The translations under genes were made by a program, and so were the position numbers. From positions 2,554 to 66,553 of the forward strand of contig DIXO01000020.1 of the NCBI GenBank assembly GCA_002428735.1: a stretch of 64,000 bases of DNA. Reading direction: 5' to 3'. This document shows positions 616-18,837 of this stretch, piece after piece. This DNA comes from Syntrophaceae bacterium UBA6078 (lineage in GTDB: Bacteria; Desulfobacterota; Syntrophia; Syntrophales; UBA2210). The notes under the pieces are model-generated. The model saw nothing but the letters and a program-made list of their open reading frames with translations, was not told the DNA's origin and ran no database searches. Numbering within the stretch: position 1 is the stretch's first letter; the number at the start of each line of letters is the position of its first letter.

Positions 616-2844
616 ATGTCTCTGCACCTTCTGTGGGAATTATATTCCTATCTTCTCCTCCCCATAACCGGGTTCCTGGTATTCTCCTCTCTGGCTCTCT
701 TTTCCATCTTCCGGGGGGAGAAAAAACCCACACACATCTACTTCACCTGCATGTGCCTCCTCGGCGCCCTGATCGATCTCGATATCGCCCTGGTGGCATT
801 CCTCGATGATGAGGAGCTTGCCCTCAGGCTGGACCGGCTGGCCTACCTCTTTTTTGTCTTTGTCATACCGGTGTATATCGGCTTCATCCATGCCGTTCTC
901 GGCATCACGAAGAGGCGATGGATCGAGACAGTCGCATACCTCTTCAGCGCCATCCTCCTTCCCTTTACGCAGACCCGATATTTTATCAGCGGATTGCGCG
1001 GCTTTTCCTTCGGGAAGATCGCCGAAGCGGGACCGCTCTATTACCTGTTTGCCGGGGTCGGGGCGATCGCCGCTCTCTACGGTATTGCCACCCTTGTGAT
1101 GGGGATACAGCGGGCGGGAAACAACCGTGAGAAGAACCGGATAGGGTATGTGCTGATCGGTTTCGGACTGAGCGGGTTTCTTGTCCTGCTCAACACTATT
1201 CCCATCATCGGATACGATATCTACCCCATGGGGAATTTCAATTTTATCCCCGGCATCATCCTCGCCTTCGCCGTCCTGAAGTACGACCTCCTCGACACGG
1301 GTATCCTCCTTCGGAAGGGAAGTGCCTATCTTTTTCTCACCGGCATCCTGACCGGCGTCTACGCCCTGGCCATTTATCTGTCCAATATTCTTTTCATGGG
1401 GTACGGGGAGGGCCACCCCATCGCCATTTCCCTGGTTTTCGCTGTTCTCGTCGTTGCCCTGTTCAACCCGGCGCGCATCAGGGCGCAGGCGCTTGTGGAT
1501 CGGGTATTTTTCAGGGGAAAATACGACTATCAGGAAACGCTGCGGCGAATAAGCGGGGCCATGGCATCCTTCCTCAGGGTGGAGGAGATCGTGAATTTTC
1601 TGCTTGAATCAGTCCCGTCGGCCTTGCAGACGAGCGGGATGGGCGTGGCGGTCTATCGTGAAGAGAGCGGGTCGCTGGAGGTGTATTCTGCCGGGCAGGG
1701 GCGCCCCGGACAAAGGGATTCGAGCACGGTGCAGGATGGCCGTTCCATAGCGGCTTTCTGCGAGGAATACCGCGGAACGCTGGAACGATTTTCTGTCGGC
1801 ACGATGGATATCCCCGCCAATCAGAAGGAGCCGATACGCAGCCTGTTCGATGCCACCCATGCCGCCATTGTCGTACCCATGGTCTTTCAGGGCAGGCTTA
1901 TGGGGGCTATGGCCCTGGGCGATAAACGATCAGGGGAACTGTTTGTGCACGAGGATATCGAACTCCTCGAAACCATCGCCAGCCAGGGGGCGATTGCCAT
2001 AGAAAACGCCCGTAATTACGAAAGACTGGAGGAAATGAACCTCAATCTGGAACAGAAGGTACGAGAGAGGACACAGGCGCTCACGACGGCGCTCGAAGAA
2101 AAAGAGCGGACCCAGCGGCAACTGATCCAGTCGGAGAGTCTCGCCTCCATCGGGCAACTGGTAGCCGGGACGGCGCATGAGCTCAATAATCCCCTTGCCA
2201 GTTCATCCAGCCTGATCCAGACATGCGCCGAAACAGTCGAAGGATGGAGCGGCGTGAACGATGCGGCGCGTGAGGAACTCGTGGAAGACTTGAGATTTTC
2301 CATCAGAGAACTCGACCGGGCAGCCGGGATCGTCCGGAGTCTCCTCGGCCTTTCGCGGCAGACACAGACCTATGTGGAGCGGGTGAACGTCAATACCCTT
2401 ATAGACGACGCTCTGCGGGTCCTGCGCAACCGGTACAAGAACTCAGCCATAACCATTGAAAGGGATCTGGCGGACGATCTGCCGGCGATCGAAGGGAACT
2501 TCGCCAACCTGGGGCAGGTGGCCGTCAACATCATCAATAACGCGATCCAGGCCCAGCAGGACGGGAAGGGCACCATAACGCTGATAACGCGCCATGAGGA
2601 AGAGGCGAATATGGTCCGCGTGGAATGCCGCGATACGGGAAGGGGCATGTCGCCCGAGGAGGCCGGGGATGCCTTCAAACCCTTTTTTACGACGAAGAGT
2701 CCGGGGGAAGGGACGGGGCTCGGGCTGTATATCGCCCATGAGATCATTCAAAAACATGGCGGGAGCATTACCATCCAGAGTGAGCAGGGAAGAGGAACCA
2801 CGGTGTCGGTGGCACTCCCCTGCCGGAGGAGGGAAGAGGGATGA
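616..2844 (+). CDS. sensor histidine kinase (7TM N-terminal domain, GAF, HisKA, HATPase_c)
   Basis: RBS AGGAGGG at 601-607 precedes ATG 616 (the track ORF starts at 577). About 7 hydrophobic helices lie in the first ~290 aa, followed by a GAF-like region. H-box AGTAHELNNPL and ATPase boxes DTGRGM / GEGTGLGLYI are present. The stop overlaps the next start (ATGA 2841-2844). Confidence 0.85.
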   Translation: MSLHLLWELYSYLLLPITGFLVFSSLALFSIFRGEKKPTHIYFTCMCLLGALIDLDIALVAFLDDEELALRLDRLAYLFFVFVIPVYIGFIHAVLGITKRRWIETVAYLFSAILLPFTQTRYFISGLRGFSFGKIAEAGPLYYLFAGVGAIAALYGIATLVMGIQRAGNNREKNRIGYVLIGFGLSGFLVLLNTIPIIGYDIYPMGNFNFIPGIILAFAVLKYDLLDTGILLRKGSAYLFLTGILTGVYALAIYLSNILFMGYGEGHPIAISLVFAVLVVALFNPARIRAQALVDRVFFRGKYDYQETLRRISGAMASFLRVEEIVNFLLESVPSALQTSGMGVAVYREESGSLEVYSAGQGRPGQRDSSTVQDGRSIAAFCEEYRGTLERFSVGTMDIPANQKEPIRSLFDATHAAIVVPMVFQGRLMGAMALGDKRSGELFVHEDIELLETIASQGAIAIENARNYERLEEMNLNLEQKVRERTQALTTALEEKERTQRQLIQSESLASIGQLVAGTAHELNNPLASSSSLIQTCAETVEGWSGVNDAAREELVEDLRFSIRELDRAAGIVRSLLGLSRQTQTYVERVNVNTLIDDALRVLRNRYKNSAITIERDLADDLPAIEGNFANLGQVAVNIINNAIQAQQDGKGTITLITRHEEEANMVRVECRDTGRGMSPEEAGDAFKPFFTTKSPGEGTGLGLYIAHEIIQKHGGSITIQSEQGRGTTVSVALPCRRREEG

Positions 2845-3839
2845 ACCTGTTGGTGGTTGACGATGAAGAGGGAGTGCGCCGGTCTCTGAAAAAAGCGCTC
2901 GAACGGGACGGGTACCATGTGCTTCTCGCGGAGGACGGCACCCGGGCCATCGGTATGGTCGGTGATAATCCGCACGGGATAGAGACCGTCATGTCGGACT
3001 ACAAGATGCCGGGGATCGACGGGCTGGAAACCCTGATCGAGATCGGAAAGATCAATCCTGAGATGACGCGAATCATCCTGACCGGCTACGCCACCATGGA
3101 AAGCGCCATCGAATCGGTCAACGCGGGGATCGACGGATTCATCACGAAACCCTTCTCCAATATTGAACTGAAGGCGAAGATCAGGGAATGCACCCTCAGG
3201 AAAAGGTTGAAGCAATTCGTCTCAGAACAGGTTTTTTCCGCGATGTGGAAGGAGGGGGCCTCCCTCGGGCTGCAAAAACGGAGGGCTACCATCCTCTTCA
3301 GCGATATCCGGGGTTTTACTGCCTTGTCGGAAGAGCTGAGCGTCGAAGAGCTGTGCGAGGTCCTCAACGTGCGGTATTTTTCGCCGATGGACGCGATTAT
3401 ATGCAGGCATAACGGGACACTGGACAAACATGTGGGAGACAGCATCATGGGGGTGTTCGGGGCTCCCCTGACCTTCGCGGACGACGCCCTGCGGGCGGTC
3501 ATGTGCGCCGCCGGGATGATGGAAGAGATCGAAAGGATAAACAGTACCCTTCCCGAAACGGAGCGGAGGATTGCCATCGGAATCGGGATCAGCACCGGGG
3601 AGGTCATGGCGGGGATATTCGGGTCTTCCAGAAAAAAAGAGTACACCGTCATGGGGCCCGCCGTCAACGTCGCCGCGAGGCTCGAAGGCCTGGCTCAGGC
3701 AGGACAGATACTCGTCTGCGGCGATACCTACCGCGCGGTGGAGGGACAGGTCCAGGCCGAGGATATGGGCCCCGTCGCCCTCAAGGGAATCGACAGAAAG
3801 ATAGGCGTGTACAATATCCGGGGATTAAAAGGAGAATAG
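2841..3839 (+). CDS. response regulator receiver fused to a class III adenylate/guanylate cyclase
   Basis: N-terminal REC (LLVVDDEEG, DYKMPGIDG, KPF). C-terminal cyclase motifs ILFSDIRGFTALSE, HVGDSIMGVFGAP and GPAVNVAARLEG. Confidence 0.85.
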   Translation: MNLLVVDDEEGVRRSLKKALERDGYHVLLAEDGTRAIGMVGDNPHGIETVMSDYKMPGIDGLETLIEIGKINPEMTRIILTGYATMESAIESVNAGIDGFITKPFSNIELKAKIRECTLRKRLKQFVSEQVFSAMWKEGASLGLQKRRATILFSDIRGFTALSEELSVEELCEVLNVRYFSPMDAIICRHNGTLDKHVGDSIMGVFGAPLTFADDALRAVMCAAGMMEEIERINSTLPETERRIAIGIGISTGEVMAGIFGSSRKKEYTVMGPAVNVAARLEGLAQAGQILVCGDTYRAVEGQVQAEDMGPVALKGIDRKIGVYNIRGLKGE

Positions 3840-3932: not shown

Positions 3933-4009
<77 letters not shown>

Positions 4010-4018
4010 AACAATTAT

Positions 4019-4053
4019 AAGGGGTTAGATTAAAATCTAGCCCCTTTTTCTTT
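4019..4053 (+). terminator. rho-independent terminator downstream of tRNA-fMet
   Basis: Hairpin AGGGGTTAGAT-TAAA-ATCTAGCCCCT followed by TTTTCTTT. Confidence 0.7.
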
Positions 4054-4055
4054 AT

Positions 4056-4089
4056 CCTGAAAGCTGATTTCCAACCCTATTTCCAACCC
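4056..4089 (+). repeat. TTTCCAAC-containing repeat, copy 1 (candidate integrase arm-type site)
   Basis: CCTGAAAGCTGATTTCCAACCCTATTTCCAACCC recurs at 4245-4275, and the TTCCAACCCTATTTCCAACC part recurs at 18643-18662. Confidence 0.5.
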
Positions 4090-4244
4090 ACCCATAACCA
4101 GTATCGCTCAGTGAAATGTAGTGGGAGCGTAATGTAGCGCGTCTTGATTCCCTGATGTGGTCTGCGCGAGAGGCGCGCTCAAGGTGGCATTGTCGGGAAA
4201 AAAGGTAATGAAGAATACTTCCCTTCTTTAATCCCAGACTCAAG

Positions 4245-4275
4245 CCTGAAAGCTGATTTCCAACCTTTTTCCAAC
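4245..4275 (+). repeat. TTTCCAAC-containing repeat, copy 2
   Basis: CCTGAAAGCTGATTTCCAACCTTTTTCCAAC. It is preceded by a degenerate copy of the terminator tail (CCCTTCTTTAATCC). Confidence 0.5.
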
Positions 4276-4635
4276 TGCCTTTTCAGGATTACTGAGAGCC
4301 GAACGGCCATGCCTGATCGTTGCTCCTGTGCCATCCTCGCGAGGCGTGAGCCAACATTCAGCATACCGCTGACATTGGCGGGATGATCATGCGGGGGAAG
4401 CCCAGAAACACGAAACGAGGTTGCGCAAATTACCTGAATGGATTTTCCTGAAATAATGAAAAGATTATCACCGTAGTTGCTGTTGCTTGCCAATCATTAT
4501 TTATTGAAGTCGAGGATTTGAAGAAAAGTGCTTGTGTGGCAGGTTTCTTTTGGTAATGAGCAAGAGGAATCAGGGAGAAAATGAATGAGGTTGGATATGC
4601 CCTCACCGATAATTATTGCGCAGTAAGCTCCGTGA

Positions 4636-7600
4636 TCACAAACCCATGCTTTCTGTTTTAGGCTGTTCATACGTCAGTCCAAAAACAGTATCCATCATCC
4701 AGCGCTTGAATCCCTCGTTGTCCATAAACTGTTTGAACAGCTCGGTATCGTCCTTCATCACGGCTGTCATTACGCGTTTCAAGGCCTTGTCGTGCTCGAT
4801 ACGGGCATTCTGCTTGTCGGGGTTTTGCCGGGCATTCCGGTATGCGCTGTCGCCCGCCACGCGGGCCGGAATCTCTTCGGTGATGAGCCGGAGCACCCGG
4901 TCGGCGTCATCCCAGGGAATGTTGCCGAACTGATCGTTGAATGCCTTGATGATGTTTGAAAGCCGGTCCAACTCGGGTTCGGCTTTGTGGCCTCCGCCAG
5001 CCGTCGGAATCGGTTCGATCTCGGCATCTTCATCAGACAGAAGAATATGCATCGACGATCGCTTTTCTACCCTGTAGCTTTCCATGTCAATGGCCTCGAG
5101 GATGCCTTTGGAAAGGTCCTCTTCCACCGGGGCCGGTAGCTTAGAAACCAGGAAATTCAGAAAGATTGAATGCTTCTCCCATTCGACATTGTTGTAGGGC
5201 AGCACCGATGAGAGGAACCCGTAGGTGCGGGTGAATGCCTTGGCCTTGCCCTTAAAATCCACCTGCCCGTCCTCGTCAAGTTCGGTTTTGTAAACTGCCA
5301 CGCAGAGATCCAGTATCGGGTCGAGCTGATCCCGGTCGGCGCCGCCGAGATACCGTTCCACAAAATCGTCGATCTGCTCGGGTGTGTAGACCTGGTAGCC
5401 ATCGAGTGCCGTCTGCAGGTCATGCAACTTGTCAGGGTCGGTTTCCTCGGCCAGTATCGTTGTGCGGTAGTAATCGGAGAAGGCCTCTTTAATGGTATCG
5501 GTGTCGTTCATAAAATCGAGCACGAAGACGTCATGCTTCTTCGGGTGGGCGCGGTTGAGGCGCGAGAGCGTCTGCACCGCCTTGATTCCCGAGAGGATCT
5601 TGTCGACGTACATCGTGTGCAGCAAAGGCTCGTCGTAGCCGGTTTGGAACTTATCGGCACAAATCAGAAAACGGTAAGGGTCTTCCTTAATCTTATCGGC
5701 AATGTGACCGGATGGGAAACCATTCATCGAGGCTTCGCTCACCTTTGTTCCGCCGTATTCATGCTCGCCCGAAAAGGCGATGATCGCCTTGTGCGGACTC
5801 TTGCGCTCGGCCAGGTAGTCGCTGATGGCATGGTAGTACTGGATTGCCCGCTCGATGCCGCTGGTGACCACCATCGCACGCGCCTGCCCGCCAATCATGC
5901 CTCGCGCCAGCACCTGCTCGTGGAAATGGTCCACCATGATCTCGGCCTTCAGCCGGATCGCGTGCTCGTGGCCTTCGACGTAGCGGCGCAGCTTCTTTTT
6001 CGCTTTTTTGGTATCGTATTGCGGATCGTCTTCCACCGTCTTTGCGAGTCTGTAATAGCTTTCCACCGGTGTGTAGTGCTTGAGCACATCAAGGATGAAA
6101 CCCTCTTGAATCGCCTGTTTCATCGTATAGCTGTGGAAGGGCAGGTGTTTGATCTTTCCGTCCGCCTGCGGAGCAGGCGCGCCGAAGATCTCGAGCGTTT
6201 TATTCTTCGGTGTAGCGGTGAAGGCAAAATAACTGGCGTTTGGCAACAGCTTGTGCGCATCCATGAGCCGGTTGATCTTGTCCTCGAAAGTCTCGTCCTC
6301 TACCTCCGAACCCGCCTCCGAGAGTGCCTCCGCCATGGCTGCGCTCGTTTTGCCGCCCTGGCTTGAGTGTGCCTCGTCAATGATAATAGCGAAGCTGTTG
6401 CCCCGGTGACCGCTCCCCAACTCATCGAGCACGAAGGGGAAGGTCTGCACCGTAGAGATGATGATCTTCTTCCCGGATTCAAGATACTCTTTCAGCTGTT
6501 TTCTTTTCGATTTTCCTTCGCCCTCCTTGACGGCGCCTATTGTCGCCCCCACCTGGGCGTATTGTTTGATCGTGTCGCGGATCTGCTTATCGAGTATGCG
6601 CCGGTCGGTGACCACGATGATCGAGTCGAAGACCGGTTTGCCGTCTTTCCTAAGCCCGATAAACTGATGCGCCAGCCAGGCGATGGAGTTCGACTTGCCG
6701 CTCCCCGCCGAATGCTGGATCAGGTAGCGCTGACCGGCCCCCTCTGAACCTGCGTGTGCCAGGAGCTTCCGCACCACGTCAAGCTGATGGTAGCGCGGCC
6801 AGATCTGGGTCTTCCTTTTGCGCCCCGTCTTCTCGTCTTTCGATTCGACGATCTGGGCGTAATTCTCGAGGATGTCCGTCAGGCTCTCCCGAGTGAGGAG
6901 CCGCTTCCACAGGTAATCGGTCTTGATACCGTCGGGATTCGGCGGATTGCCCGCGCTGTCGTTCCAGCCGAGGTTGAAGGGCAGAAACCACGACGCCTTC
7001 CCCTTCAAGTGCGTGCAGAATTTTACCTCGTGGTCGTCCACAGCGAAGTGGACCACGCAACGACCGAACTCGAAAAGTTTCTCACGCGGATTGCGATCCT
7101 TTTTGTACTGCCACACAGCGTCCTCGACGGTCTGCTTGGTGAGGCTGTTCTTCAACTCGAAAGTCGCCACCGGCAGGCCGTTGATGAAAAGTCCCAAATC
7201 GAGTGCCAGCTGCGTTTCATCGCGGCTGTAGCGCAATTGACGCGTGACCGAAAAGCGGTTTGCTTCGAACAGCGTTTTGGCCTTCACATTACCCACTGAC
7301 GGTGTGCCGTAAAAGAGATCGAGATCGTGCGCCCCATGCTTGAGACCGTGTCGCAGTATGTCGATCGTGCCGCGCCTGGTGACCTCGCCTTGCAATCGGG
7401 CGAGGAACTTGCGCCGCACCGGTCCGTCTTCATCGAGGGCGAGCGCCTCAGCCGCCTCTGGTTGTGTCTCATGGAGGAAGGCGGAGAGCTGTGCCAGGTC
7501 AACGCAGTACTCGCGGTCGTAGTCGTTCGGGTTGCCGCCGATCCAGCCCGTGCCCCCGTAGTTTGTAACTGTATCAGTCACCCCTCCTGTTGCGCCCGGA

Positions 7601-7674
7601 TCGCAGGAGTGGCCGGTAAGGGCCGTACAGATCAGTCGTTCCATACCTCTTTCACTGGTGTCGGTGGTCGTCAT
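4636..7674 (-). CDS. hsdR: type I restriction enzyme, R subunit
   Basis: 1012 aa. Helicase motif I SAGSGKSNS, DEAH box IIIDEAHSSQGG and a typical type I R C-terminal tail. The start overlaps the upstream gene's stop (ATGA 7671-7674). Confidence 0.9.
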   Translation of the reverse strand: MTTTDTSERGMERLICTALTGHSCDPGATGGVTDTVTNYGGTGWIGGNPNDYDREYCVDLAQLSAFLHETQPEAAEALALDEDGPVRRKFLARLQGEVTRRGTIDILRHGLKHGAHDLDLFYGTPSVGNVKAKTLFEANRFSVTRQLRYSRDETQLALDLGLFINGLPVATFELKNSLTKQTVEDAVWQYKKDRNPREKLFEFGRCVVHFAVDDHEVKFCTHLKGKASWFLPFNLGWNDSAGNPPNPDGIKTDYLWKRLLTRESLTDILENYAQIVESKDEKTGRKRKTQIWPRYHQLDVVRKLLAHAGSEGAGQRYLIQHSAGSGKSNSIAWLAHQFIGLRKDGKPVFDSIIVVTDRRILDKQIRDTIKQYAQVGATIGAVKEGEGKSKRKQLKEYLESGKKIIISTVQTFPFVLDELGSGHRGNSFAIIIDEAHSSQGGKTSAAMAEALSEAGSEVEDETFEDKINRLMDAHKLLPNASYFAFTATPKNKTLEIFGAPAPQADGKIKHLPFHSYTMKQAIQEGFILDVLKHYTPVESYYRLAKTVEDDPQYDTKKAKKKLRRYVEGHEHAIRLKAEIMVDHFHEQVLARGMIGGQARAMVVTSGIERAIQYYHAISDYLAERKSPHKAIIAFSGEHEYGGTKVSEASMNGFPSGHIADKIKEDPYRFLICADKFQTGYDEPLLHTMYVDKILSGIKAVQTLSRLNRAHPKKHDVFVLDFMNDTDTIKEAFSDYYRTTILAEETDPDKLHDLQTALDGYQVYTPEQIDDFVERYLGGADRDQLDPILDLCVAVYKTELDEDGQVDFKGKAKAFTRTYGFLSSVLPYNNVEWEKHSIFLNFLVSKLPAPVEEDLSKGILEAIDMESYRVEKRSSMHILLSDEDAEIEPIPTAGGGHKAEPELDRLSNIIKAFNDQFGNIPWDDADRVLRLITEEIPARVAGDSAYRNARQNPDKQNARIEHDKALKRVMTAVMKDDTELFKQFMDNEGFKRWMMDTVFGLTYEQPKTESMGL

Positions 7675-8675
7675 GTCGGGTTTTCTCCTTCTCGTTCACA
7701 CAGCAGGTGGGTCACGATGCGGACGATGATCTCTTTCTCCTCCGGTTTGCTCTCGGCCATGAGCAGGGTAACGGCCACGAGTGCGGCTGCGGAAATACGC
7801 GGCTCGCCCTTTCGATCCCGGAGGGCGCCGTTCTTTTCCAGAAACCAGAGGAAGACGGCGGCGCCGATGCGCTTGTTGCCGTCCACGAAGACATGATTCT
7901 TGATCAGGAAGTAGAGCAGATGTGCGGCCTTTTCCTCAAGACTGGGATAGACATCATTGCCATCGAACGTTTGCATGACGGCGCCCAGGGCGCCCTGAAG
8001 ACCTTCGTCCTTTTGCCGCCCGAAGAGGGACGAGCCGCCGAATCGCTCCCGCAATTGTCCCACGATGCGCAAGGCCTCCGGGTAGGTGAGAGGATGGACG
8101 GTCTTTCCGCCCGCCGGGGGAGCGCCCACGCGCTGGTAGTCGTAATCATCCAGAAGATCCAGGGCGAAACGATACTCGCCCACAACCCGCAACAGGGCCT
8201 TGGCTTCGTCGCCGGACAGATCCCGTCGATCGACCACACCGGCGATCAGCCGGACCGCCTGGTTAAGGTCGTGGAGGCGCTTTTCGTTGACGCTGTATCC
8301 CTTGAGCAGATGATCCCGCAGGACCCGGGTGGCCCAGATGCGGAACTGCGTCCCGCGCAGGGACTTCACTCGATAACCAACGGAGATCACCACATCAAGA
8401 TTGTAGAACCGAACTGGCCGGCGAACGGTTCGGCCGCCTTCCTTTTGAACTACCGATGAATCCTCGGTAGTTGCCGATTCTTCCAATTCGCCTTCTTTGT
8501 AGGCGTTTCGGATATGCAGTCCGATCGTATCCGTATCCTTGTCGAACAGCAGAGCCATCTGCTTCTGGCTCATCCAGATCGTCTCCCTTTCCAGTCGGAC
8601 GTCCAGTTCTACCGTGCCATCGGGGGCCTGATAGAGGACGATTTCTCCTTGAGATTTGTTTTCCCGCATCGTCAT
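7671..8675 (-). CDS. RhuM-family N-terminal domain fused to a Fic/Doc domain
   Basis: The N-terminus YNLDVVISVGYRVKSLRGTQFRIWATRVLRDHLLKGY is RhuM-like. The C-terminal HVFVDGNKRIGA matches the Fic/Doc motif HxFx(D/E)GN(G/K)R. Confidence 0.8.
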   Translation of the reverse strand: MTMRENKSQGEIVLYQAPDGTVELDVRLERETIWMSQKQMALLFDKDTDTIGLHIRNAYKEGELEESATTEDSSVVQKEGGRTVRRPVRFYNLDVVISVGYRVKSLRGTQFRIWATRVLRDHLLKGYSVNEKRLHDLNQAVRLIAGVVDRRDLSGDEAKALLRVVGEYRFALDLLDDYDYQRVGAPPAGGKTVHPLTYPEALRIVGQLRERFGGSSLFGRQKDEGLQGALGAVMQTFDGNDVYPSLEEKAAHLLYFLIKNHVFVDGNKRIGAAVFLWFLEKNGALRDRKGEPRISAAALVAVTLLMAESKPEEKEIIVRIVTHLLCEREGENPT

Positions 8676-10099
8676 GCCTCTACTTCCTCTTGCGCCGTGT
8701 CGAGGTCGTCTGCCCTTTCTTCGCCACCGTTGCCGATAGCGTCCATCTCGTCGAGCGACTCCGATTCGTTGGTTTCGTCGGGCAACTTAGCCGCCGCCTC
8801 GCGCACGTCGAGCTTCCCCGTGACCACGTCGGCGATCAGGCGGGTGCGGTATTCACGAAGGAGAGAGATTTCGCGATGGGCGCGGGTGATGGTGGTGCCG
8901 ATGCCGGCGGTGGCTTGGTCGAGGTACTCGACAATGGCAACCTGCTCCCCAAAAGGGGGAGCGGGAATATAGAACCGATTCAGATCAGAGAAGCGTAGCG
9001 ATGGTTGCATGATTAGTGATATCGAAGCTTTCTCGTATTTGAATAAGCGTCGCATCACCATCTCGTAGTATAAGCTACTCCTTCTGTTGTCACGCGGGAC
9101 GATTACCGCGCAGTTTTGGGACAGACTGAACGCGCCCGAAACCAACCTCGTCGACATGGCCCGCGCACCGACCGTCGTTACTAAGATCGCGTCGTTTTCA
9201 AAATTGAACTCATGCCAACTGATACTTCCCATTAGGCCGTTGTTTTCGGTCTGACCACTAAATACTCGGAAGGGTCCAGGATTGGCCTCGATGTATTCGT
9301 TCGTTAGCTCGGCAGCTCTACTCCCTTTTGCATACCGGAAATCAAATCTGAGCTTCCGCACCTCCCAATGTGCCGGCACATCGCCAAGCCATTCCACGCC
9401 GGAGGGCTTGAGGGGGACGTCGGGATCGAGGCCGCGGGTGACGGCGCGGTGGATGATGGCCTGCTTCTGCTCTTCCAGCAGCTTGATCAGCTTCTGCTTT
9501 GCTCGTATATATCGCCGCACCCGTCGGTCAATATGATCCAGAAACCGGACAATAGCGGTTTGTTCAGGGAGGGGTGGGAGTGGGAACGGTGCACAAAGAA
9601 ACGAATCGTCGGTCAGTTGCAGTCGCGAAGTCCAGACACCTTTTGATCGCACACGGAGTTCCCAGTGAAAGGGAATCGATCTAACGAGTTCATGTATAAA
9701 CCTAGAATTGATGCTTTTCTTCGGTCTATATACACCATATGCGGTACTGATGATGCCATAATAATTCGAGACACCCAAACCTCGTGCCCACGCCCACAGG
9801 CTATTGATTACGAGATCCCCAGGCCAACACAGTTTGTAGCCGACGTAAGACTCAGCTTTGAACATCGTTACGCTGGCAGATCGGCGTGGCACGATACCAC
9901 GTTCTGATGAGACAGTCAGTAATTCTTCCCCTCCCGTTTCCGACCGAATATCTATGCAGCGAAAAAGGTTTTTCCCCCGCCGCACCTCCCAATGCTCCGG
10001 CACCTCCCCCAGCCACTCAACGCCGGAGTCCTTCATCGCAGGATAAGGTTTAAGGTTCGTGATCATGGCCTCTGGCTCCAGGTCGGCAGTTCCTGCCAC
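8672..10099 (-). CDS. hsdS: type I restriction enzyme, specificity subunit (two TRDs)
   Basis: Duplicated conserved segments SGVEWLG(E/D)VP(E/A)HWEV and coiled central/C-terminal conserved repeats (LPEQTAIVRFLD / FGEQVAIVEYLD). The track start is GTG 10099. An alternative ATG at 10066 gives an ATGA overlap with the Abi stop. Confidence 0.85.
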   Translation of the reverse strand: MAGTADLEPEAMITNLKPYPAMKDSGVEWLGEVPEHWEVRRGKNLFRCIDIRSETGGEELLTVSSERGIVPRRSASVTMFKAESYVGYKLCWPGDLVINSLWAWARGLGVSNYYGIISTAYGVYRPKKSINSRFIHELVRSIPFHWELRVRSKGVWTSRLQLTDDSFLCAPFPLPPLPEQTAIVRFLDHIDRRVRRYIRAKQKLIKLLEEQKQAIIHRAVTRGLDPDVPLKPSGVEWLGDVPAHWEVRKLRFDFRYAKGSRAAELTNEYIEANPGPFRVFSGQTENNGLMGSISWHEFNFENDAILVTTVGARAMSTRLVSGAFSLSQNCAVIVPRDNRRSSLYYEMVMRRLFKYEKASISLIMQPSLRFSDLNRFYIPAPPFGEQVAIVEYLDQATAGIGTTITRAHREISLLREYRTRLIADVVTGKLDVREAAAKLPDETNESESLDEMDAIGNGGEERADDLDTAQEEVEA

Positions 10100-10968
10100 C
10101 TCTGTGGGAAGCCCATCATCGAGGTATCCACAAACGGATTCTCATCCATCAGATTCTTCATTCTCGCGTTCCAGGTCGTCCCGGGACTCATCAGCCGCAA
10201 CAGATAGCTCAGCATGACGAGCGTGTTGTAAATATTCCTATCCGTTTTCATATTGAAATCAGAGGTGATCGCCTGTGGGCGGAGGGGGATGGTCATGGTG
10301 ATCGTCAGGCGCCTATTCCAGAGGCGTCCGTGATGTGCCACGATATTCCGGACGTGCGTCAGGTGGTGCATGAAAGAACTCAGCACGGCCTCATCAATCT
10401 GGAATATGGAAGCGATTTCTTGGCGATCTGGTCTTTTCTTGAGATTTCTGAACCACATTGACAATTGGCCGAGGGACATGATTTCGCATGTCGCCCAGAT
10501 GGGGGGAAGATGGGGTTCACGATACCTTTCCTTGTAATGTTCGATGAACGTTTCCCGACTGCGTGTGAATTCCTCCCGGAGACTCGCCAGGCACTGGGCA
10601 TGGATACCTGCTGATTTGAACAGACCTGCTTCGAGATAAGCATGGCTGCCGTATCTGTTCCCCAAAACATAGGCAAATCGGGTACGGAAAGAGATCTCGG
10701 CGCGCTCTATCGCCTCCAGCACGAGCAGGCGAAACTTTCGGTCGAAGATATACAGCGACAAAGGCTGTTCGAAACGGGTCCCCTTTTTGAAGCCATGGAC
10801 GATTGCATTACCCGGCTCCTCATAAATCAGCCAGTATGCTCTCAGACGATAGTAATTGATATGAGTAAGGTATCGGGCGGTTCGTTGTCGGTCTGCGACA
10901 TCCATACCGCGAGAAATGAGAAGATCAATCTGCTTGTCGATGGAGAGAGGGGGCTTATCGTATCTCAT
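10063..10968 (-). CDS. Abi_2 (AbiD/AbiF-like) abortive-infection family protein
   Basis: 301 aa. MRYDKPPLSIDKQIDLLISRGM...YLTHINYYRLRAYW and ...HVRNIVAHHGRLWNR are the hallmark N- and C-terminal motifs of the Abi_2 family. Confidence 0.8.
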   Translation of the reverse strand: MRYDKPPLSIDKQIDLLISRGMDVADRQRTARYLTHINYYRLRAYWLIYEEPGNAIVHGFKKGTRFEQPLSLYIFDRKFRLLVLEAIERAEISFRTRFAYVLGNRYGSHAYLEAGLFKSAGIHAQCLASLREEFTRSRETFIEHYKERYREPHLPPIWATCEIMSLGQLSMWFRNLKKRPDRQEIASIFQIDEAVLSSFMHHLTHVRNIVAHHGRLWNRRLTITMTIPLRPQAITSDFNMKTDRNIYNTLVMLSYLLRLMSPGTTWNARMKNLMDENPFVDTSMMGFPQRWQELPTWSQRP

Positions 10969-11228
10969 AATAATGCCCCAAAAAAAGTAACCCGCCGGGT
11001 GCGCATATCCGGTCGAAACCGGCAGAGGCGAGGCGGGTGTTGTTCAATGAGAGTAAAAGTTGCCCCTCTACTAGCAAACTGCGATGGTAAAGTCAAACTT
11101 TTTATTCCCTTCGAAAGTTGGTGTTTCATCCACAACAATTGTTGCGGCAGTGTCTTGACAATCCGGATTTCTGAAAGCATCAGGATAAAACGAATCATGA
11201 GGAAAGTTTTTGCCCGTTTCCTGTTCAT
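10965..11228 (-). CDS. candidate small basic protein (orf87) bridging hsdM and abi
   Basis: An 88-codon open frame exactly fills the 256-bp gap. Its start forms ATGA with the hsdM stop (11225-11228) and its stop forms ATGA with the abi start (10965-10968). No recognisable family, and lower G+C than its neighbours. Confidence 0.3.
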   Translation of the reverse strand: MNRKRAKTFLMIRFILMLSEIRIVKTLPQQLLWMKHQLSKGIKSLTLPSQFASRGATFTLIEQHPPRLCRFRPDMRTRRVTFFGALL

Positions 11229-13207
11229 CCCCTCTCCCCACCGATTATTTCATCCAGCAGCCCTTCCGTCTCCTTCTCCAGCGCCAATATATCGGCCCGG
11301 ATCTCCTCCAGCGTGCGCATCGGCTGAGGTTTGTAAAAGTAACGGGTAAAACTGATCTCGTAACCGATCTTGACGCTCTCCGGAACGTACCACGCGTCGG
11401 AAGCGTAGGGAAGCACCTCGCGCTCCAGAAAGGCCTCGATGCCGCCTTCCTCCATCAAGGGTATCTGCTCGGTATCGCGCAGGTCGGTATCGGGTTCGTA
11501 CTCGACCACGGCGGGCTTGCCGTCGATGGTCGTCGGGAAAAGACCGCGCACCGGGTCGGGCATCGTTCCCTTTTTATGGATTTTATTGAGAATCGGGGGG
11601 GCATCTTCGGAACGCCCGGCGGTTTCTCTGAGCTGCTTGATCTCCGCGGGTTTGTATGCACGGTTCGGATCGGCGCCAACCAGCCGCAGCGGCCGCTCGA
11701 TGGTTACTTTCCAGTAGCCGAAGGCGGCGTTGTCAAAGATCTTGGACTGCTCGGTCTCCTCGAAGGCGAGGAAGGTGTCACAGATACGGGTGATGTCGGC
11801 TTCGCCCAGCTCGCAGTTCTTTTTGCCGAGGTTCTTGCGCAGGGGCCGGTACCACCCGGTGGCGTCGATCAGTTGGACCTTGCCGCGGCGGTGTGAAGGC
11901 TTGCGGTTTGAGAGCACCCATATATACGTGGCGATTCCGGTGTTGTAGAACATGTTCAGCGGCAGGGCGACGATGGCTTCCAGCCAGTCGTTCTCGATGA
12001 TCCAGCGGCGGATATTGCTCTCTCCCTGACCGGCATCGCCGGTAAAGAGCGAACTGCCATTGTGCACCTCGGCAGTACGGCTGCCAAGGGTAGTGCCCTG
12101 CTTCATTTTCGAAAGCATATTTGCCAGAAACAGCATCTGGCCGTCGCTGGAACGGGTGACGAGTGAGTACTCAGGGTCGCCTGCGTGCTCGATCATGAAG
12201 CGTGGGTCCCTCATGTCCTTCTTGCCGCCCATACGCTCCAGGTCGCCCTTCCAACTTTTACCGTATGGTGGATTAGAGAGCATGAAGTCGAACTCGCGCG
12301 CGGGGAAGGCATCATTGGAAAGCGTTGAATGGTCAGGACCACCGATGATATTATCCGCTGCGTCGCCTTCTCCTTTGAGCAGAAGGTCAGCCTTGCAGAT
12401 GGCGTAGGTCTCGGCGTTGATCTCCTGGCCATAGAGATGCGTTGCCACTTCTTTGCCGCGTTCACCGGCGAGTTGCTTAAATATCTCCTCGGCCACTGTC
12501 AGCATGCCACCGGTGCCGCAGGCACCATCATACAACAAGTAAGTTCCCGATTCGATCTCGCCGGCAACGGGGAGAAAGACCAGCTTTGCCATCAGTTTGA
12601 CAGCGTCGCGCGGCGTCCAGTGTTCTCCTGCCTCTTCGTTGTTCTCCTCATTGAAGCGGCGCACCAGTTCCTCGAAGATCGTGCCCATACCATGGTTGTC
12701 GAGGCCTGGTTGCCTGACAGTGCCATCACTGTTCAGCACCGGGTCGGGACTCAAGTTAATGTCAGGGGAGGTTAGCTTGTCGATCAGCGTACCCAACGCA
12801 TCGGCCTTGGAAAGTCGTGGAATCTGATTACGAAATTCAAAGTTTTCGAGTATGTCCTGAACGTTTGGCGAGAAGCCGTCGAGATAGGCTTCGAAATCGG
12901 CTCGAAGCTGTTTCTGGCTGGCGCGGGCCTTTAGGTCGCGCATGGTAAACTTCGACGTGTTATAGAAGGCCTGGCCTGCCGCCTGGCGAAGCGCCTGATC
13001 CTGATGAACGATCCCCGCATTGTCCAGCGATGTCTTCATGTCGAGTACGGCCTGCTTCGTCGGCTCCAGCACCGCATCGAAACGACGCAGAACGGTCATT
13101 GGCAGAATGACATCGCGATACTTGCCACGGACGTAAAGGTCACGCAGAACATCATCCGCAATGCCCCAGATGTAGCCTGCGATCCAGTTGAGTTTATTGT
13201 TTTCCAT
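11225..13207 (-). CDS. hsdM: type I restriction enzyme, N6-adenine DNA methyltransferase subunit
   Basis: Motif I DGACGTGGML and motif IV NPPYG (FMLSNPPYGKSW). Start set at ATG 13207 (MENNKLNW...), preceded by RBS GGAGGA. The track ORF extends to 13276. Confidence 0.9.
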   Translation of the reverse strand: MENNKLNWIAGYIWGIADDVLRDLYVRGKYRDVILPMTVLRRFDAVLEPTKQAVLDMKTSLDNAGIVHQDQALRQAAGQAFYNTSKFTMRDLKARASQKQLRADFEAYLDGFSPNVQDILENFEFRNQIPRLSKADALGTLIDKLTSPDINLSPDPVLNSDGTVRQPGLDNHGMGTIFEELVRRFNEENNEEAGEHWTPRDAVKLMAKLVFLPVAGEIESGTYLLYDGACGTGGMLTVAEEIFKQLAGERGKEVATHLYGQEINAETYAICKADLLLKGEGDAADNIIGGPDHSTLSNDAFPAREFDFMLSNPPYGKSWKGDLERMGGKKDMRDPRFMIEHAGDPEYSLVTRSSDGQMLFLANMLSKMKQGTTLGSRTAEVHNGSSLFTGDAGQGESNIRRWIIENDWLEAIVALPLNMFYNTGIATYIWVLSNRKPSHRRGKVQLIDATGWYRPLRKNLGKKNCELGEADITRICDTFLAFEETEQSKIFDNAAFGYWKVTIERPLRLVGADPNRAYKPAEIKQLRETAGRSEDAPPILNKIHKKGTMPDPVRGLFPTTIDGKPAVVEYEPDTDLRDTEQIPLMEEGGIEAFLEREVLPYASDAWYVPESVKIGYEISFTRYFYKPQPMRTLEEIRADILALEKETEGLLDEIIGGERG

Positions 13208-13230
13208 GAAATCCTCCAGTCCCCACACCA

Positions 13231-13265
13231 CAAAAAACCCCGCGCGCTTCTGGAGACACGGGGTT
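13231..13265 (-). terminator. terminator-like hairpin in the hsdM leader
   Basis: On the minus strand, AACCCCG-16 nt-CGGGGTT is followed by TTTTTT and ends about 25 nt upstream of the hsdM ATG. Confidence 0.45.
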
Positions 13266-13743
13266 TCATAGATCATTCCATAGTACCCTCACACATGGTT
13301 ATAGACTCGCACTTTTGAATAAACGACCGCAACACGGAGCTATGATTACCACTATTTACAGAAGAATGCCACCAGGAATGGAAAAAGGGCTGATAAATTT
13401 TCAGAGAGCAATCGGCCTCAAAATGAATGGAGAATATGCTGACGAGCGTTTGTACATTTCAAACAGCATCCAGTCATCTGGATTGATCGACTTACGTGAT
13501 TACTTGTACTTGAAAGTCTCTCCATAATAGTTTTTGACAGGTCATCGTCATGGGGTTAGTGAACAATGAAATAGATGACTTTAATGGGGAGCTATCATTG
13601 TGCCCTGTCCAAAGAAGCCAGACCGCCGGTCTCTTTGAACCCTTAACAGCCCCACTGGACCCCTTAAAAAACCTGTTAGTTACACAGGCAAAAATTAGTA
13701 AGCCTCAGCGGGAAAACGGGGCGACGATGCCCGTACTTGAAAG

Positions 13744-14109
13744 CTACCCCGGTGCAGGACCCGAAGGCGAAGCGACCGCACGATTGATAAGGATACATGT
13801 ATTGGGGTGAGACATTATCCAGTATTTATGCCTACCTAGATATAGGTAGTTGAAATATCTTTTACCACTCCACTTCTCCCGTACTGCATACTTCCTTATC
13901 ATCTCAGCCAGCCACCGGAATTCTCCTTCAAGCTCCGGTTTCCATGTAACTACCGTGTAAGTATGGGGCTGCTCCGGCATCGTCTTTGCGAACCGCCACT
14001 CTACTGCCAGGATGTAAAGTTCAGCGCGTCGTTCTTCTTCCTCAGTTGCCATCAGACCTTTGCCGCGTTTGAGATGAGAATCTCCTACCTTTGGTATATT
14101 TGATGTCAC
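13744..14109 (-). CDS. conserved-looking hypothetical protein (MPEQPHTYTV ... YWIM motifs)
   Basis: 121-aa ORF. The more likely start is MATEEE at 14052. The pattern resembles a phage/island-associated family I cannot name. Confidence 0.5.
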   Translation of the reverse strand: MTSNIPKVGDSHLKRGKGLMATEEEERRAELYILAVEWRFAKTMPEQPHTYTVVTWKPELEGEFRWLAEMIRKYAVREKWSGKRYFNYLYLGRHKYWIMSHPNTCILINRAVASPSGPAPG

Positions 14110-14123
14110 GGTATGTATCCCCT

Positions 14124-14360
14124 CTACGATTGTGTTTCCGGGTTCGCGTTTAAGATAGTTTCCCTACTGTACCTTACCTTATGTCCGCACTCCGGGCATA
14201 TCAAGGCAATGAGCTCTGAACGGTGTTGAAAGGCATCTAAGGCCCCTTCATGCCCTTCAAATGTGCCACCCACGCCCCAACCACCCAGAGGGGTATGGCC
14301 ACGCTCAACGGAACCGACCCATTCATGGGCTAGTTTACATGTGCCCTTCCCATAAGGCAT
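14124..14360 (-). CDS. small hypothetical protein with a putative 4-Cys zinc ribbon
   Basis: 78-aa ORF containing CPECGH. The frame stays open upstream of the ATG and adds another Cys (TCSLQG-MPYGKGTCK), so the start is uncertain. Confidence 0.4.
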   Translation of the reverse strand: MPYGKGTCKLAHEWVGSVERGHTPLGGWGVGGTFEGHEGALDAFQHRSELIALICPECGHKVRYSRETILNANPETQS

Positions 14361-14506
14361 GCCCTGTAGCGAGCATGTAACCGTTTCCTTGGGCTGCTTC
14401 CTGAATCCAGCTAATTTTAAAAGGGCCGCTTTCCCATTTCTTAATAGTCTCGTTTTGGGATTTTAAATCCCTCGCCTTCAGGCGACAACTTATAGTATGA
14501 AAGGGT

Positions 14507-14704: not shown

Positions 14705-15262
14705 TCGGGCTTTCAGCCGACTTTAGAACCCACCGGCTTCCAGCCGGTGGTCTTCAGTTACAGAATACCAAACCAAAGGTTTAATGTCGAGAACAAAACT
14801 CACTTATTCTCATTTATTCTCGGGTACTTAGGCTTAATTAACCGCTTATCTCCAGAGGGATTTGGCAACGCGTTGCGTGTTTTTTGCCCTCTTGGTTACA
14901 GCCAGCCAGCGACAAGCCCATCTTCAAGGGAAGCATCAATCGTAAGTTTTTAATGTATACCTGCCTGTGCGCTTCAATTTTTATTTGAGTCGGGTTCTTT
15001 TTTAAGACATCACCTGTAGCCGGTGTAATACGATTTTTAAATATATATTATGATATTGCGGTGTATGATCATGGTCCTATAAAATAGATATTTGATCAGT
15101 CCAAGCGATTCGCAAACCCTAAGACCTTTGTACATACTCTCATGGGGACCCCTTATGACATGGTAATACATGTATACACGGACGTTGACGACGTACACCC
15201 TCCAAAAATATAAAAACATACTGAAAAGTAGACTACAGAAGGTATCCCGGTAATGATGACGT

Positions 15263-15351
15263 TTCATAGGGTGCCCCCCGCTGACGACCGTGTGTTTTCA
15301 TGAGGTGCCCCCCGCTGACAACCGTGTGGGTGTCCTCCGTTGACGACCGCG
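15263..15351. repeat. iteron-like tandem direct repeats (34-bp period, 2 full copies plus 1 degenerate)
   Basis: TTCATAGGGTGCCCCCCGCTGACGACCGTGTG (15263-15294), TTCATGAGGTGCCCCCCGCTGACAACCGTGTG (15297-15328) and GGTGTCCTCCGTTGACGACCGCG (15329-15351). A further GTTGACGACG lies at about 15184-15193, across an AT-rich stretch. Confidence 0.7.
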
Positions 15352-15833
15352 AAGTGTATTCGCTCCCCTCCTATTTGTTGCTCCGATTTCCGACCTTGGT
15401 ATCCCCGTCTGACATCTCTCTGCCGAGTACTAATTGGCTGACACCCCCGCCGCCACATTCGGTAATCTTCAACCAGGGCATACAGCGCCTTGTCTTTCTC
15501 AAACAGTCCACCTGGATTGACGATTTTGATAAAACCTTTTGCCAATAGCTCGTCAATGCTCCGGGTTGTCCGTTTTTGACTTATCCCGCGCGCTTCCAAT
15601 TCTTTATATGTAAGAGAAATCTTGTTGCCATCCGTACGCTCAAGCACCTTTTTCCCATTCTTTTTCCGGTAGCCGAAGGTTCGTTTGCCGAGTAATAAAA
15701 TTAAAACCTGTGTGGAACAATTACTCACAACGGGCGATGAACCTCTGGAACCAAGGGACAAAAAGGCTGGAGAGAGGAACAACTTGCTCTCAAGAAAAGT
15801 GCCTTCCCCATATCTGTTTCCGCGCTGTCTCAT
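15264..15833 (-). CDS. putative replication/winged-helix DNA-binding protein of the integrative element
   Basis: 189-aa ORF. Its middle part (ISLTYKELEARGISQKRTTRSIDELLAKGFIKIV) looks like a wHTH of small Rep-like proteins. The last ~30 codons read through the iterons, so the C-terminus is uncertain. Confidence 0.55.
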   Translation of the reverse strand: MRQRGNRYGEGTFLESKLFLSPAFLSLGSRGSSPVVSNCSTQVLILLLGKRTFGYRKKNGKKVLERTDGNKISLTYKELEARGISQKRTTRSIDELLAKGFIKIVNPGGLFEKDKALYALVEDYRMWRRGCQPISTRQRDVRRGYQGRKSEQQIGGERIHFAVVNGGHPHGCQRGAPHENTRSSAGGTL

Positions 15834-16205: not shown

Positions 16206-16469
16206 TTATCGTGCATCGTCGAAAGCGACACGGCGTGCTTCCATGAAGGCGAGGACATCTTCCAGCTTATAGCGGATGGACCTGCCCCCTACGCGAAGAT
16301 ATGGTAATCCGCGCCTCAGGAATCTATCGTTGCGAAGTGTGCTAAGTGCCCGACCCGTGATCGCCGCTGTTTCAACTTCGTTCAGGTAAGGTTTTTTGAG
16401 GAGCTCAGCGATATTATCAATCTTGAAGGACTCGCCCGTGCTCGTAGTTTCCATGATGTTCACCTCCAT
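16206..16469 (-). CDS. AlpA/excisionase-family HTH DNA-binding protein
   Basis: LNEVETAAITGRALSTLRNDRFLRRGLPYLRVGGRSIRYKLEDVLAFME is typical of HTH_17/AlpA/Xis proteins. It sits in the integrase operon. Confidence 0.75.
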   Translation of the reverse strand: MEVNIMETTSTGESFKIDNIAELLKKPYLNEVETAAITGRALSTLRNDRFLRRGLPYLRVGGRSIRYKLEDVLAFMEARRVAFDDAR

Positions 16470-18590: not shown

Positions 18591-18642
18591 TTATTAAAAC
18601 AAGGATCAATGAGTACGCATTTCGATATGCCCAGAATTATTA

Positions 18643-18662
18643 TTCCAACCCTATTTCCAACC
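18643..18662 (+). repeat. TTCCAACC repeat, copy 3 (between the int start and attR)
   Basis: TTCCAACCCTATTTCCAACC is identical to 4070-4089. Confidence 0.5.
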
Positions 18663-18787
18663 TAAATAATAATAAAACAGGTATTTCACGGTAAGTCAAG
18701 GGAATATTTATTTATGTAAGTAGCTTATAATTCAATAAATAAATGGAGTGTTGGTAAAAATCGGGAAATGACGGTAACAGATATTAC

Positions 18788-18837
<50 letters not shown>

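Follow-up and report, generated by a model that had tools for sequence, protein, structure and literature searches.

An open frame spans a predicted AbiF antitoxin RNA gene in an island-borne type I restriction-modification operon of a Syntrophaceae bacterium

A 64,000-nucleotide (nt) stretch of contig DIXO01000020.1 from Syntrophaceae bacterium UBA6078 (the window, by which we mean this whole stretch) carries a type I restriction-modification (R-M) operon on its minus strand, and we examined this operon at positions 4636-13207. The sequence and a mechanical list of open reading frames (ORFs) place six consecutive minus-strand ORFs there, in the order hsdM, orf87, Abi_2, hsdS, RhuM-Fic and hsdR. 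TCAT lies on the plus strand at 11225-11228, 10965-10968, 10063-10066, 8672-8675 and 7671-7674, so that all five junctions are ATGA stop/start overlaps, and purine runs resembling Shine-Dalgarno (SD) sequences lie upstream of each start, that of orf87 included. An initial annotation of this DNA had described these ORFs, their order and the five overlaps, with hsdS read from the ATG at 10066 that overlaps the Abi_2 stop, and had identified hsdM, Abi_2, hsdS, RhuM-Fic/Doc and hsdR; the sequence and the ORF list bear out the layout, Pfam and PADLOC matches confirm the identities of the five proteins, and the proteins look intact. We consider it probable that the locus is an island-borne type I R-M operon with a RhuM-Doc gene, in which an AbiF cassette occupies the hsdM/hsdS junction and orf87 serves as a relay frame over the RNA gene of that cassette. 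The features of the operon are as follows.

11225-13207, minus strand: hsdM, type I R-M methyltransferase, 660 amino acids (aa); Pfam N6_Mtase, 3.7e-50, and HsdM_N, 5.8e-21; PADLOC MTase_I, 2.3e-239
10965-11228, minus strand: orf87, open frame of 87 codons, proposed translated relay (bridge) over the antitoxin-RNA gene; ATGA at both ends
11050-11096, minus strand: promoter-like boxes inside orf87, TTGCTA (11072-11077)-16 nt-TACTCT (11050-11055), alternatively TTGACT (11091-11096)-17 nt-TAGTAG (11068-11073)
10979-11047, minus strand: abiF-motif RNA, predicted AbiF antitoxin; Rfam RF03085 is the best match in the gap; family alignment
10063-10968, minus strand: abi_2 (abiF-like), predicted HEPN ribonuclease (RNase) toxin, 301 aa; Pfam Abi_2, 1.8e-55; PADLOC AbiD, 1.1e-73
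10057-11240, minus strand: 1.18-kb AbiF cassette (RNA and Abi_2) as an indel, absent from the related contig L088
8672-10066, minus strand: hsdS, specificity subunit with two target-recognition domains, 464 aa; Pfam Methylase_S, two stretches; PADLOC Specificity_I, 1.8e-97
7671-8675, minus strand: RhuM N-terminal region and Doc-type Fic domain, predicted toxin/effector, 334 aa; Pfam Virulence_RhuM, 1.3e-23, and Fic, 3.3e-13
4636-7674, minus strand: hsdR, restriction subunit, 1012 aa; Pfam HSDR_N, SWI2_SNF2, ResIII, DEAD and T1R_D3-like; PADLOC REase_I, 2e-44

The hsdM, hsdS and hsdR genes constitute a type I R-M system, for which methylation and restriction activity are predicted. The hsdM start, the ATG at 13207 with GGAGGA upstream, agrees with the starts of relatives, and the HsdM translation contains DGACGTGG and NPPY (SNPPYG), corresponding to the S-adenosylmethionine-binding and NPPY motifs of such methyltransferases. 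In keeping with the two-domain organization of a specificity subunit, hsdS contains a 54-nt conserved repeat (9356-9409 and 9980-10033). The HsdR translation shows a Walker A box (AGSGKS), a DEAH box (IIDEAH) and D...ELK nuclease motifs, as expected for a PD-(D/E)xK nuclease joined to an SF2 translocase.

Between hsdM and Abi_2, orf87 extends from the hsdM stop to the Abi_2 start, and its start codon closely follows GGAGAGGGG. Its translation has no Pfam match, and tblastn found nothing resembling it in 80 Abi_2 loci. A HMMER search of 1.84 billion representatives returned only orf87 itself, one 90-aa ORF of 49% identity and one spurious match, and the 90-aa ORF proved to be the syntenic gap of a related contig, L087. 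Over the 132 nt that precede the promoter boxes, the window and L087 differ at 16, 9 and 13 first, second and third codon positions, respectively, and their codon changes comprise 5 synonymous and 22 non-synonymous ones, which does not improve on an out-of-frame control. The two contigs also differ by a 1-nt indel in the RNA loop, which moves the frame, and the RNA motif is read in differing frames among the loci, as EQHPPRLCRFRP... in the window and as NTRPASAGFG... in L001 and L016. Gene callers disagree on orf87, some of them predicting an ORF there, and the length of the bridging frame ranges from 45 to 115 codons among loci. What the initial annotation had counted as a third embedded non-R-M ORF overlies promoter-like boxes and an abiF antitoxin RNA and lacks conservation at the protein level. 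orf87 is not a protein family: the open frame is conserved, and the peptide is not. A first view of orf87 as merely spurious was revised, since the open frame proved to be conserved in loci linked to hsdM.

The spacer of about 130 nt between the hsdM stop and the promoter-like boxes (11097-11224) is common to the window and L087, at approximately 71% identity, and is missing from L001, which has the closest Abi_2 relative of the genome collection. In the window this spacer includes a 12-nt palindrome, CAACAATTGTTG, without a conserved counterpart in L087. Comparison of this spacer with the 3' end of hsdM gave a weak alignment only, and we make no claim that it is an hsdM relic.

The 3' third of orf87 is covered by the abiF RNA. 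RF03085 is the best match in the hsdM-Abi_2 gap, at 10990-11037 on the coding strand and over the full model, in a narrow 401-nt Rfam scan; a scan of 4000-14500 at E <= 1 returned no match, so that the element was exposed by the narrow scan only. From its 5' end, the RNA consists of UUGAACAACA, a hairpin at 10991-11037 and then a terminator-like UUACUUUUUUU, 22 nt before the Abi_2 AUG. The hairpin is built from P1 (CCCGCC/GGCGGG), P2 (CGC/GCG) and an extra terminal hairpin (CCGG/CCGG). No energy signal emerged when the 276-nt gap was folded in full (z = -0.56); the element is a small local hairpin.

We assembled 80 genomic loci (L001-L080) that encode Abi_2 relatives of 38-79% identity and come from many phyla. 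The abiF element is present in 80/80 of these loci, 19-80 nt upstream of the Abi_2 start, and the shared element comprises AACAACA, a 6-bp P1, a 3-bp P2, a variable terminal loop or hairpin and a conserved internal loop, followed by UUACUUUUUU. Covariation of P1 and P2 was assessed in an alignment of 81 RNA sequences (A2) against shuffles and slid controls. In P1 and P2, 99.1% of cells are paired, compensatory changes on both sides occur in 8 of the 9 pairs, and there are 105 double-change cells; 0/500 shuffles reached the observed value. Just 22-54% of cells are paired in the slid controls. The elements of six loci (L005, L006, L025, L040, L069 and L070) pass the RF03085 gathering score at exactly the aligned coordinates, and the window RNA aligns with them column for column. 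A model built from A2 finds one match in the window, at 10979-11047; the window sequence is itself in the model, so this result speaks to uniqueness only. Since only 6/20 loci tested pass its threshold, RF03085 under-detects the abiF RNA family.

At least three subtypes, which follow the Abi_2 clades, can be distinguished among the RNAs of A2, namely ACGCCUCU...GCGCACC, AAGGCUAUGC...CCUCAAACC and AAGCCUCU...GCUCAAAYC. The window and most of its relatives have one abiF motif; L070 has two in tandem (4631-4732), both above the gathering score, as in C. difficile RCd22.

The promoter-like boxes within orf87 are pattern matches and represent candidate promoters. TTGCTA-16-TACTCT stands at a distance from the RNA that is typical of the family, and TTGACT-17-TAGTAG lies further upstream. 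When the upstream sequences of relatives were anchored on the hairpin, the best -10-like hexamer ended 13-14 nt before P1 in 55/79 distinct relatives, and a consensus of fixed position, TTga...TaAaAT, appeared upstream of P1. The scores of these boxes are similar in hsdM-linked and other loci.

The protein encoded downstream of this RNA has an intact R-N-x3-H-H motif (RNIVAHH), which includes the catalytic R-x4-H of HEPN proteins and whose residues R207, N208, H212 and H213 are invariant in 30 homologs. It matches PDB 8VZ6, which is PbAbiF solved with its non-coding RNA, over its full length (residues 3-297, E = 5.3e-45). Pfam identifies only the Abi_2 domain in this protein, with no N-terminal ABC-ATPase fusion of the kind seen in PrrC/RloC-type anticodon nucleases. 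AbiF and AbiD are HEPN RNase toxins that are neutralized by a cis-encoded RNA and form type III toxin-antitoxin systems, in which a terminator separates antitoxin and toxin and read-through yields the toxin mRNA (PMC12373285, PMC12737573, PMC13064643). In these reports, RNA neutralization and toxicity are demonstrated for PbAbiF and AbiFCd only.

The window cassette resembles PbAbiF-AbiFr (8VZ6) and AbiFCd-RCd22 in that a homologous toxin with the HEPN motif is directly preceded by an RF03085-type RNA, a U-run and promoter-like boxes. It differs from them in several respects. RCd22 has two motif copies, whereas the window cassette has one; the extra terminal-loop hairpin puts the window RNA below the RF03085 gathering score; the 3' strand of the hairpin itself adjoins the U-run, in place of a separate terminator; and the window cassette sits between hsdM and hsdS, has an open frame lying over it, and the stop codon of its Abi_2 gene overlaps hsdS. 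By analogy with neutralization in PbAbiF/AbiFr and RCd22/AbiFCd, we infer that the window RNA and Abi_2 constitute a self-contained AbiF type III toxin-antitoxin cassette.

The evidence for a relay comes from 22 loci, the window included, in which the AbiF cassette directly follows a gene of this hsdM family. The hsdM stop is overlapped by a start codon in 22/22 of them (ATGA, GTGA, TTGA or TGATG-type; ATG in 18), and the frame that begins there is open across the gap of 130-343 nt to the Abi_2 start, again in 22/22. This frame stops on the Abi_2 NTGA in about 16 of the 22 and within -14 to +13 nt of it in the rest. Shuffling of the spacers that precede the RNA predicts 5.7/22 bridging frames (per-locus P of 0.018-0.72, with 0.018 for the window), and an empirical expectation drawn from 59 loci in other contexts is 8.1/22. 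Among cassettes behind other co-directional genes, 11/41 have a bridging frame, and several of these 11 follow R-M genes of other kinds or helicase genes; no bridging frame is present where the cassette stands behind gyrB or ribonucleotide reductase. An ORF listing independently confirmed the bridging ORFs of L050 (1243-1404), L063 (9825-9986) and L016 (4593-4796). The spacers of the hsdM-linked loci are 57-282 nt long and mostly <=76% identical, with only L050 and L051 near-identical; clustering of the spacers by semi-global identity at 65% was not discriminating and served only to reveal this pair. The same layout occurs in cultured strains, namely Sphaerotilus hippei DSM 566 (L048), Polaromonas glacialis R3-9 (L053), Rhodocyclus purpureus DSM 168 (L055) and Acinetobacter tjernbergiae DSM 14971 (L046).

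In compact operons, an isolated 4-nt overlap is nothing unusual. Three junction types of the window operon are conserved in relatives: the bridge from hsdM to Abi_2, the Abi_2/hsdS overlap, which is NTGA in 16/17 loci in which hsdS comes next, and the RhuM-Doc/hsdR overlap, which is ATGA in 4/5 relatives. The hsdS/RhuM-Doc overlap is ATGA in just 2/6. The initial annotation had taken the chained overlaps to imply obligatory co-transcription and translational coupling. The chain from hsdM through the bridge to Abi_2 and hsdS is evolutionarily conserved and fits translational coupling, but co-transcription need not be obligatory, because the AbiF cassette has promoter-like boxes of its own and a hairpin with a U-run. 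The exact order and overlaps, whose conservation the annotation had put forward as a check, are kept in relatives at several junctions, but the cassette and the cargo are variable.

The extent of the cassette is visible in a comparison with L088, a sediment contig found by a metagenome scan with the RhuM-Fic protein. L088 encodes HsdM, RhuM-Fic and HsdR proteins that are 97%, 98% and 97% identical to those of the window, respectively, and no Abi_2; its hsdM and hsdS overlap directly by ATGA. In blastn alignments of the two contigs, an identity of 92-95% ends at window position 11241 and resumes at 10056, which makes the 1.18-kb block of RNA and Abi_2 a clean indel, placed between the stop of hsdM and the start of hsdS. 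The conserved regions of hsdS are 89-91% identical in DNA between the window (9356-9409 and 9980-10033) and L088 (6581-7277), while both recognition domains differ, giving 45% protein identity. This swap of hsdS specificity between near-identical operons goes together with the AbiF cassette being present in one and missing from the other, and the RNA, Abi_2 and the 5' end of hsdS may move together as a single swappable unit flanked by conserved segments of hsdM and hsdS.

Other relatives also vary at and around this site. In L038 and L039, HsdM is 84% identical to that of the window and AbiF is only 44-45% identical, with an RNA of another subtype; overall, differing AbiF lineages (44-79% identity) adjoin HsdM proteins that are 83-84% identical. 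The hsdM-hsdS slot of L092 is taken by a truncated 99-aa ORF (6253-6552), which begins at the stop of hsdM and shares 11 nt with the beginning of hsdS. This ORF appears to resemble the N-terminal part of DUF1016/YhcG proteins, and it may be a degraded earlier insert that has been kept open as a bridge. Extra cargo in the sister operons of L016, L038, L039 and L068 includes GmrSD_N, Macro, DarT, Schlafen/AlbA_2 and YhcG/DUF1016 domains; for the high-G+C loci L038 and L039, in which naive ORF calling gave many spurious long ORFs, Pfam was applied to selected ORFs. The modules, which include DarT with Macro (DarTG-like) and Schlafen/AlbA_2 with HATPase_c_4, are located at 8816-10517 in L016, at 6242-8038, 12815-13939 and 15680-17353 in L039, at 13249-15030 in L038 and at 10935-12278 in L068. 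In Acinetobacter the cassette is placed between hsdS and hsdR, 53/80 Abi_2 cassettes have no hsd neighbor, and most RhuM-Fic relatives lie outside the operon type of the window. The accessory genes of the operon are modular.

These observations can be accommodated by the following mechanism. The operon has hsdM-hsdS-(RhuM-Doc)-hsdR as its backbone, and the AbiF cassette consists of promoter-like boxes, one predicted antitoxin RNA that ends in a hairpin and U-run, and the Abi_2 gene. If it behaves like its counterparts in PbAbiF/AbiFr and RCd22/AbiFCd, the short RNA would bind and block the AbiF RNase, and phage infection would upset this balance, upon which AbiF would cleave RNA, arrest the cell and back up DNA restriction. 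RhuM-Doc would provide a third layer that targets protein. The comparative data on the loci suggest that a structured, terminator-like RNA gene in the middle of an operon would be polar on hsdS and hsdR, and this polarity would be the reason for an open frame that runs from the hsdM stop through the RNA gene to the Abi_2 start. On the operon transcript, ribosomes would re-initiate on the hsdM stop, translate the RNA gene, re-initiate at Abi_2 and proceed to hsdS; their passage through the RNA gene would keep the hairpin melted and prevent termination by the hairpin and U-run or by Rho. A transcript from the internal promoter would lack the relay start codon, remain untranslated, fold as the antitoxin and mostly end at the U-run. 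Beyond the window, we give somewhat less than an even chance to the general proposition that selection maintains a relay frame of arbitrary peptide when an antitoxin-RNA cassette sits in a defense operon, with the frame starting on the upstream stop, being read by ribosomes through the promoter and the antitoxin-RNA gene, and ending on the toxin start. Leader-ORF and attenuation control offers a likeness, in that there, too, stop/start overlaps are found and an ORF runs through a terminator-like hairpin whose folding translation could presumably stop. The window differs in that the translated stretch would coincide with the gene for a trans-acting antitoxin RNA and its promoter.

Several points weigh against this interpretation. 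The window RNA scores 21 bits (E = 0.26 in the 401-nt search) and so falls short of the RF03085 gathering score (37); a 19-nt insertion in its terminal loop accounts for this. The window boxes are weak (7-8/12), with the better -35 paired to a -10 that lacks the final T, and neither the internal boxes nor the hairpin with its U-run was picked up by a generic scan for promoters and terminators. The near-identity of L050 and L051 means that the 22 hsdM-linked loci lack full independence, and stop frequency may be overestimated by mononucleotide shuffles. NTGA at the Abi_2 start is common family-wide, occurring in 34/60 loci in other contexts, and the 3' end of the relay frame is therefore partly a by-product of Lys or Arg at position 2. 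Translation of the relay would raise toxin synthesis as well, which would require antitoxin in excess. Lastly, no antitoxin is evident for the predicted Doc-type domain. 

In the main rival explanation, the gap would be entirely non-coding and would contain only the cassette promoter and the antitoxin RNA. The 87-codon frame would then never be translated and would be a relic of an ancestral hsdM/hsdS ATGA followed by stop-poor sequence, and hsdS and the downstream genes would be expressed by read-through from the cassette's own promoter or attenuator, the cassette being transcriptionally autonomous. This account agrees with the conservation of the RNA and the promoter-like boxes in all contexts, with the absence of peptide conservation in orf87 and with the family-wide frequency of NTGA at the Abi_2 start. 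It also agrees with a second frame that is likewise stop-free in the first 132 nt, both in the window and in L087, and with the presence of the hsdM-stop ATG in L088, where hsdS follows directly. It does not predict that the frame should be open in 22/22 hsdM-linked loci, compared with 5.7-8.1 expected and with 11/41 in other co-directional contexts, nor that it should be so across spacers of 57-282 nt that are mostly <=76% identical. A start codon on the hsdM stop in every hsdM-linked locus and frames that shift inside the motif yet remain open are further difficulties for it, and we judge this rival unlikely, though not negligibly so. That orf87 is instead a real, fast-evolving small protein, such as a regulator or a second antitoxin, which overlaps the RNA gene by chance, might be argued from the frame being open in relatives, from its SD-like sequence and overlapped start and stop, and from its prediction by some gene callers. 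This explanation is the least probable of all, given that close relatives read the RNA motif in other frames, that the comparison with L087 yields 16/9/13 differences by codon position and 5 synonymous against 22 non-synonymous changes, that the only homolog is one syntenic ORF, and that the length of the frame varies between 45 and 115 codons.

A further alternative, which is close to the view of the initial annotation, is that the six protein genes form one obligatorily co-transcribed and co-evolved multi-layer system, of which each accessory protein is an integral subunit. The five ATGA overlaps and the conservation of several junctions are what such a system would show, and EcoprrI with its PrrC offers a precedent in which an embedded HEPN nuclease is functionally integrated with a type I enzyme (PMC3710099). 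Against this stand the lack of any protein family for orf87 and its overlap with an RNA gene, and the L088 operon, which is 97-98% identical and does without the cassette. Furthermore, AbiF lineages of 44-79% identity lie beside HsdM proteins of 83-84% identity, the cargo of sister operons varies, 53/80 cassettes have no hsd neighbor and most RhuM-Fic relatives are found elsewhere. The initial annotation had itself named sporadic, independently inserted accessory genes as the pattern that would speak against one integrated six-gene defense unit, and this is the pattern that we observe. We consider such a unit very improbable, and we favor an R-M operon that hosts a modular AbiF cassette bridged by a relay frame.

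The RhuM-Fic protein encoded between hsdS and hsdR matches PF13310 with 84 bits (cut-off 33.7), but only over profile positions 1-95 of 252. It matches PADLOC PDC-S23 nearly over its full length (1.8e-128, profile positions 4-324 of 327), and PDC-S05 was also matched. The only solved relative is PDB 9VZC, a 'death-on-curing family protein' (E = 5e-4), aligned over ...NHVFVDGNKR.... The Fic motif is HVFVDGNKRIGA (HVFVDGNKR), in which K replaces the second G, so that the canonical AMPylation motif HxFx(D/E)GNGRxxR is not matched. The H-x-F-x-D-G-N-K-R motif is a Doc-type variant that marks kinase-type Doc proteins. The window protein is thus like the Doc toxin in its Fic fold and Doc-type motif, and differs from it in lacking a Phd-like antitoxin gene and in being fused to an N-terminal RhuM region. 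Beside the RhuM-Fic gene we found no Phd-like antitoxin gene: no small ORF lies between it and hsdS, because that junction is an ATGA overlap, and the N-terminal RhuM region stands where a Phd-type antitoxin would. PDC-S23 and PDC-S05, which this protein resembles in being embedded, here between hsdS and hsdR, are phage-defense candidates only. The PDC candidates come from a 'guilt by embedding' screen in BREX, DISARM and type I R-M loci (bioRxiv 10.1101/2024.01.29.577857).

The operon is cargo of an island of approximately 14.8 kb, the two ends of which are marked by the following features.

3933-4058, plus strand: island left end, with tRNA-Met at 3933-4009 (ARAGORN) and the left copy of a 99-nt direct repeat at 3960-4058
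17421-18886, minus strand: tyrosine integrase at 17421-18575 (Pfam Phage_integrase, 9.2e-27) and the right repeat copy at 18788-18886

The two copies of the direct repeat are 85% identical, and the right copy is a partial 3' half of the tRNA. With its tyrosine integrase, the tRNA gene at one end and the repeated 3' part of that tRNA at the opposite end, the island is of the tRNA-targeting integrative kind, inserted at tRNA-Met. The G+C content is lower from 13.2 to 19.4 kb, an HTH_17 protein is encoded on the island at 16206-16454, and the same island layout is found in L081 and L082. Short repeats, TTCCAACCCTATTTCCAACC and CCTGAAAGCTGATTTCCAACC..., adjoin both island ends at 4056-4088, 4245-4276 and 18643-18662; one copy per end is 100% identical, and these repeats are possible arm sites of a recombinase. 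At 15262-15328, where the island ORFs 15037-15267 and 15264-15833 meet, lies a 33-nt tandem repeat (91% identical); neither of these ORFs has a Pfam family. Flanking the island, at 2841-3839 and upstream of it, a response regulator fused to a nucleotide cyclase domain stands beside a histidine kinase of the 7TM-GAF type, according to Pfam marks from L081; these genes are unrelated to the operon. Among named relatives, Smithellaceae/Syntrophales metagenome-assembled genomes are the nearest.

Parts of this arrangement have been described before. Abi2, AbiF and AbiD have been listed as 'embedded in R-M operons', RhuM has been noted to be often fused to Doc, and a three-level defense has been proposed in which R-M acts on DNA, HEPN on RNA and Doc on protein (Anantharaman et al. 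2013, PMC3710099). The window operon resembles the R-M operons of that study in carrying, among its hsdMSR genes, both a HEPN RNase gene and a RhuM-Doc fusion gene. In EcoprrI-PrrC, the embedded protein is an ABC-ATPase-HEPN anticodon nuclease that the R-M enzyme restrains, whereas the window HEPN protein is of the Abi2 type and has a predicted RNA antitoxin. The components, the multi-layer concept of R-M, HEPN and Doc/RhuM, and 'guilt by embedding' in type I R-M loci are prior art. The literature that we searched yielded no description of a conserved relay frame over an antitoxin-RNA gene or of a conserved Abi_2/hsdS overlap, and the relay arrangement of known modules is possibly new.

For annotation, the present analysis corrects a trap: the short ORFs called between hsdM and Abi_2 hide an AbiF antitoxin RNA, of a divergent subtype that the Rfam threshold misses. 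The near-isogenic pair formed by the window and L088 identifies the AbiF cassette as a discrete, swappable insert and offers direct evidence on how defense operons gain embedded modules. If the relay is real, the same DNA would give a folded antitoxin when transcribed as a short RNA and, within the operon mRNA, an unfolded spacer that ribosomes translate, and would be an example of DNA that serves as both RNA gene and translated spacer. Such a relay would suppress polarity, chain translation from hsdM to AbiF to hsdS and tie synthesis of the specificity subunit to that of the toxin. It would also explain how a cassette with an attenuator of its own can reside inside an operon without silencing the specificity and restriction genes downstream.

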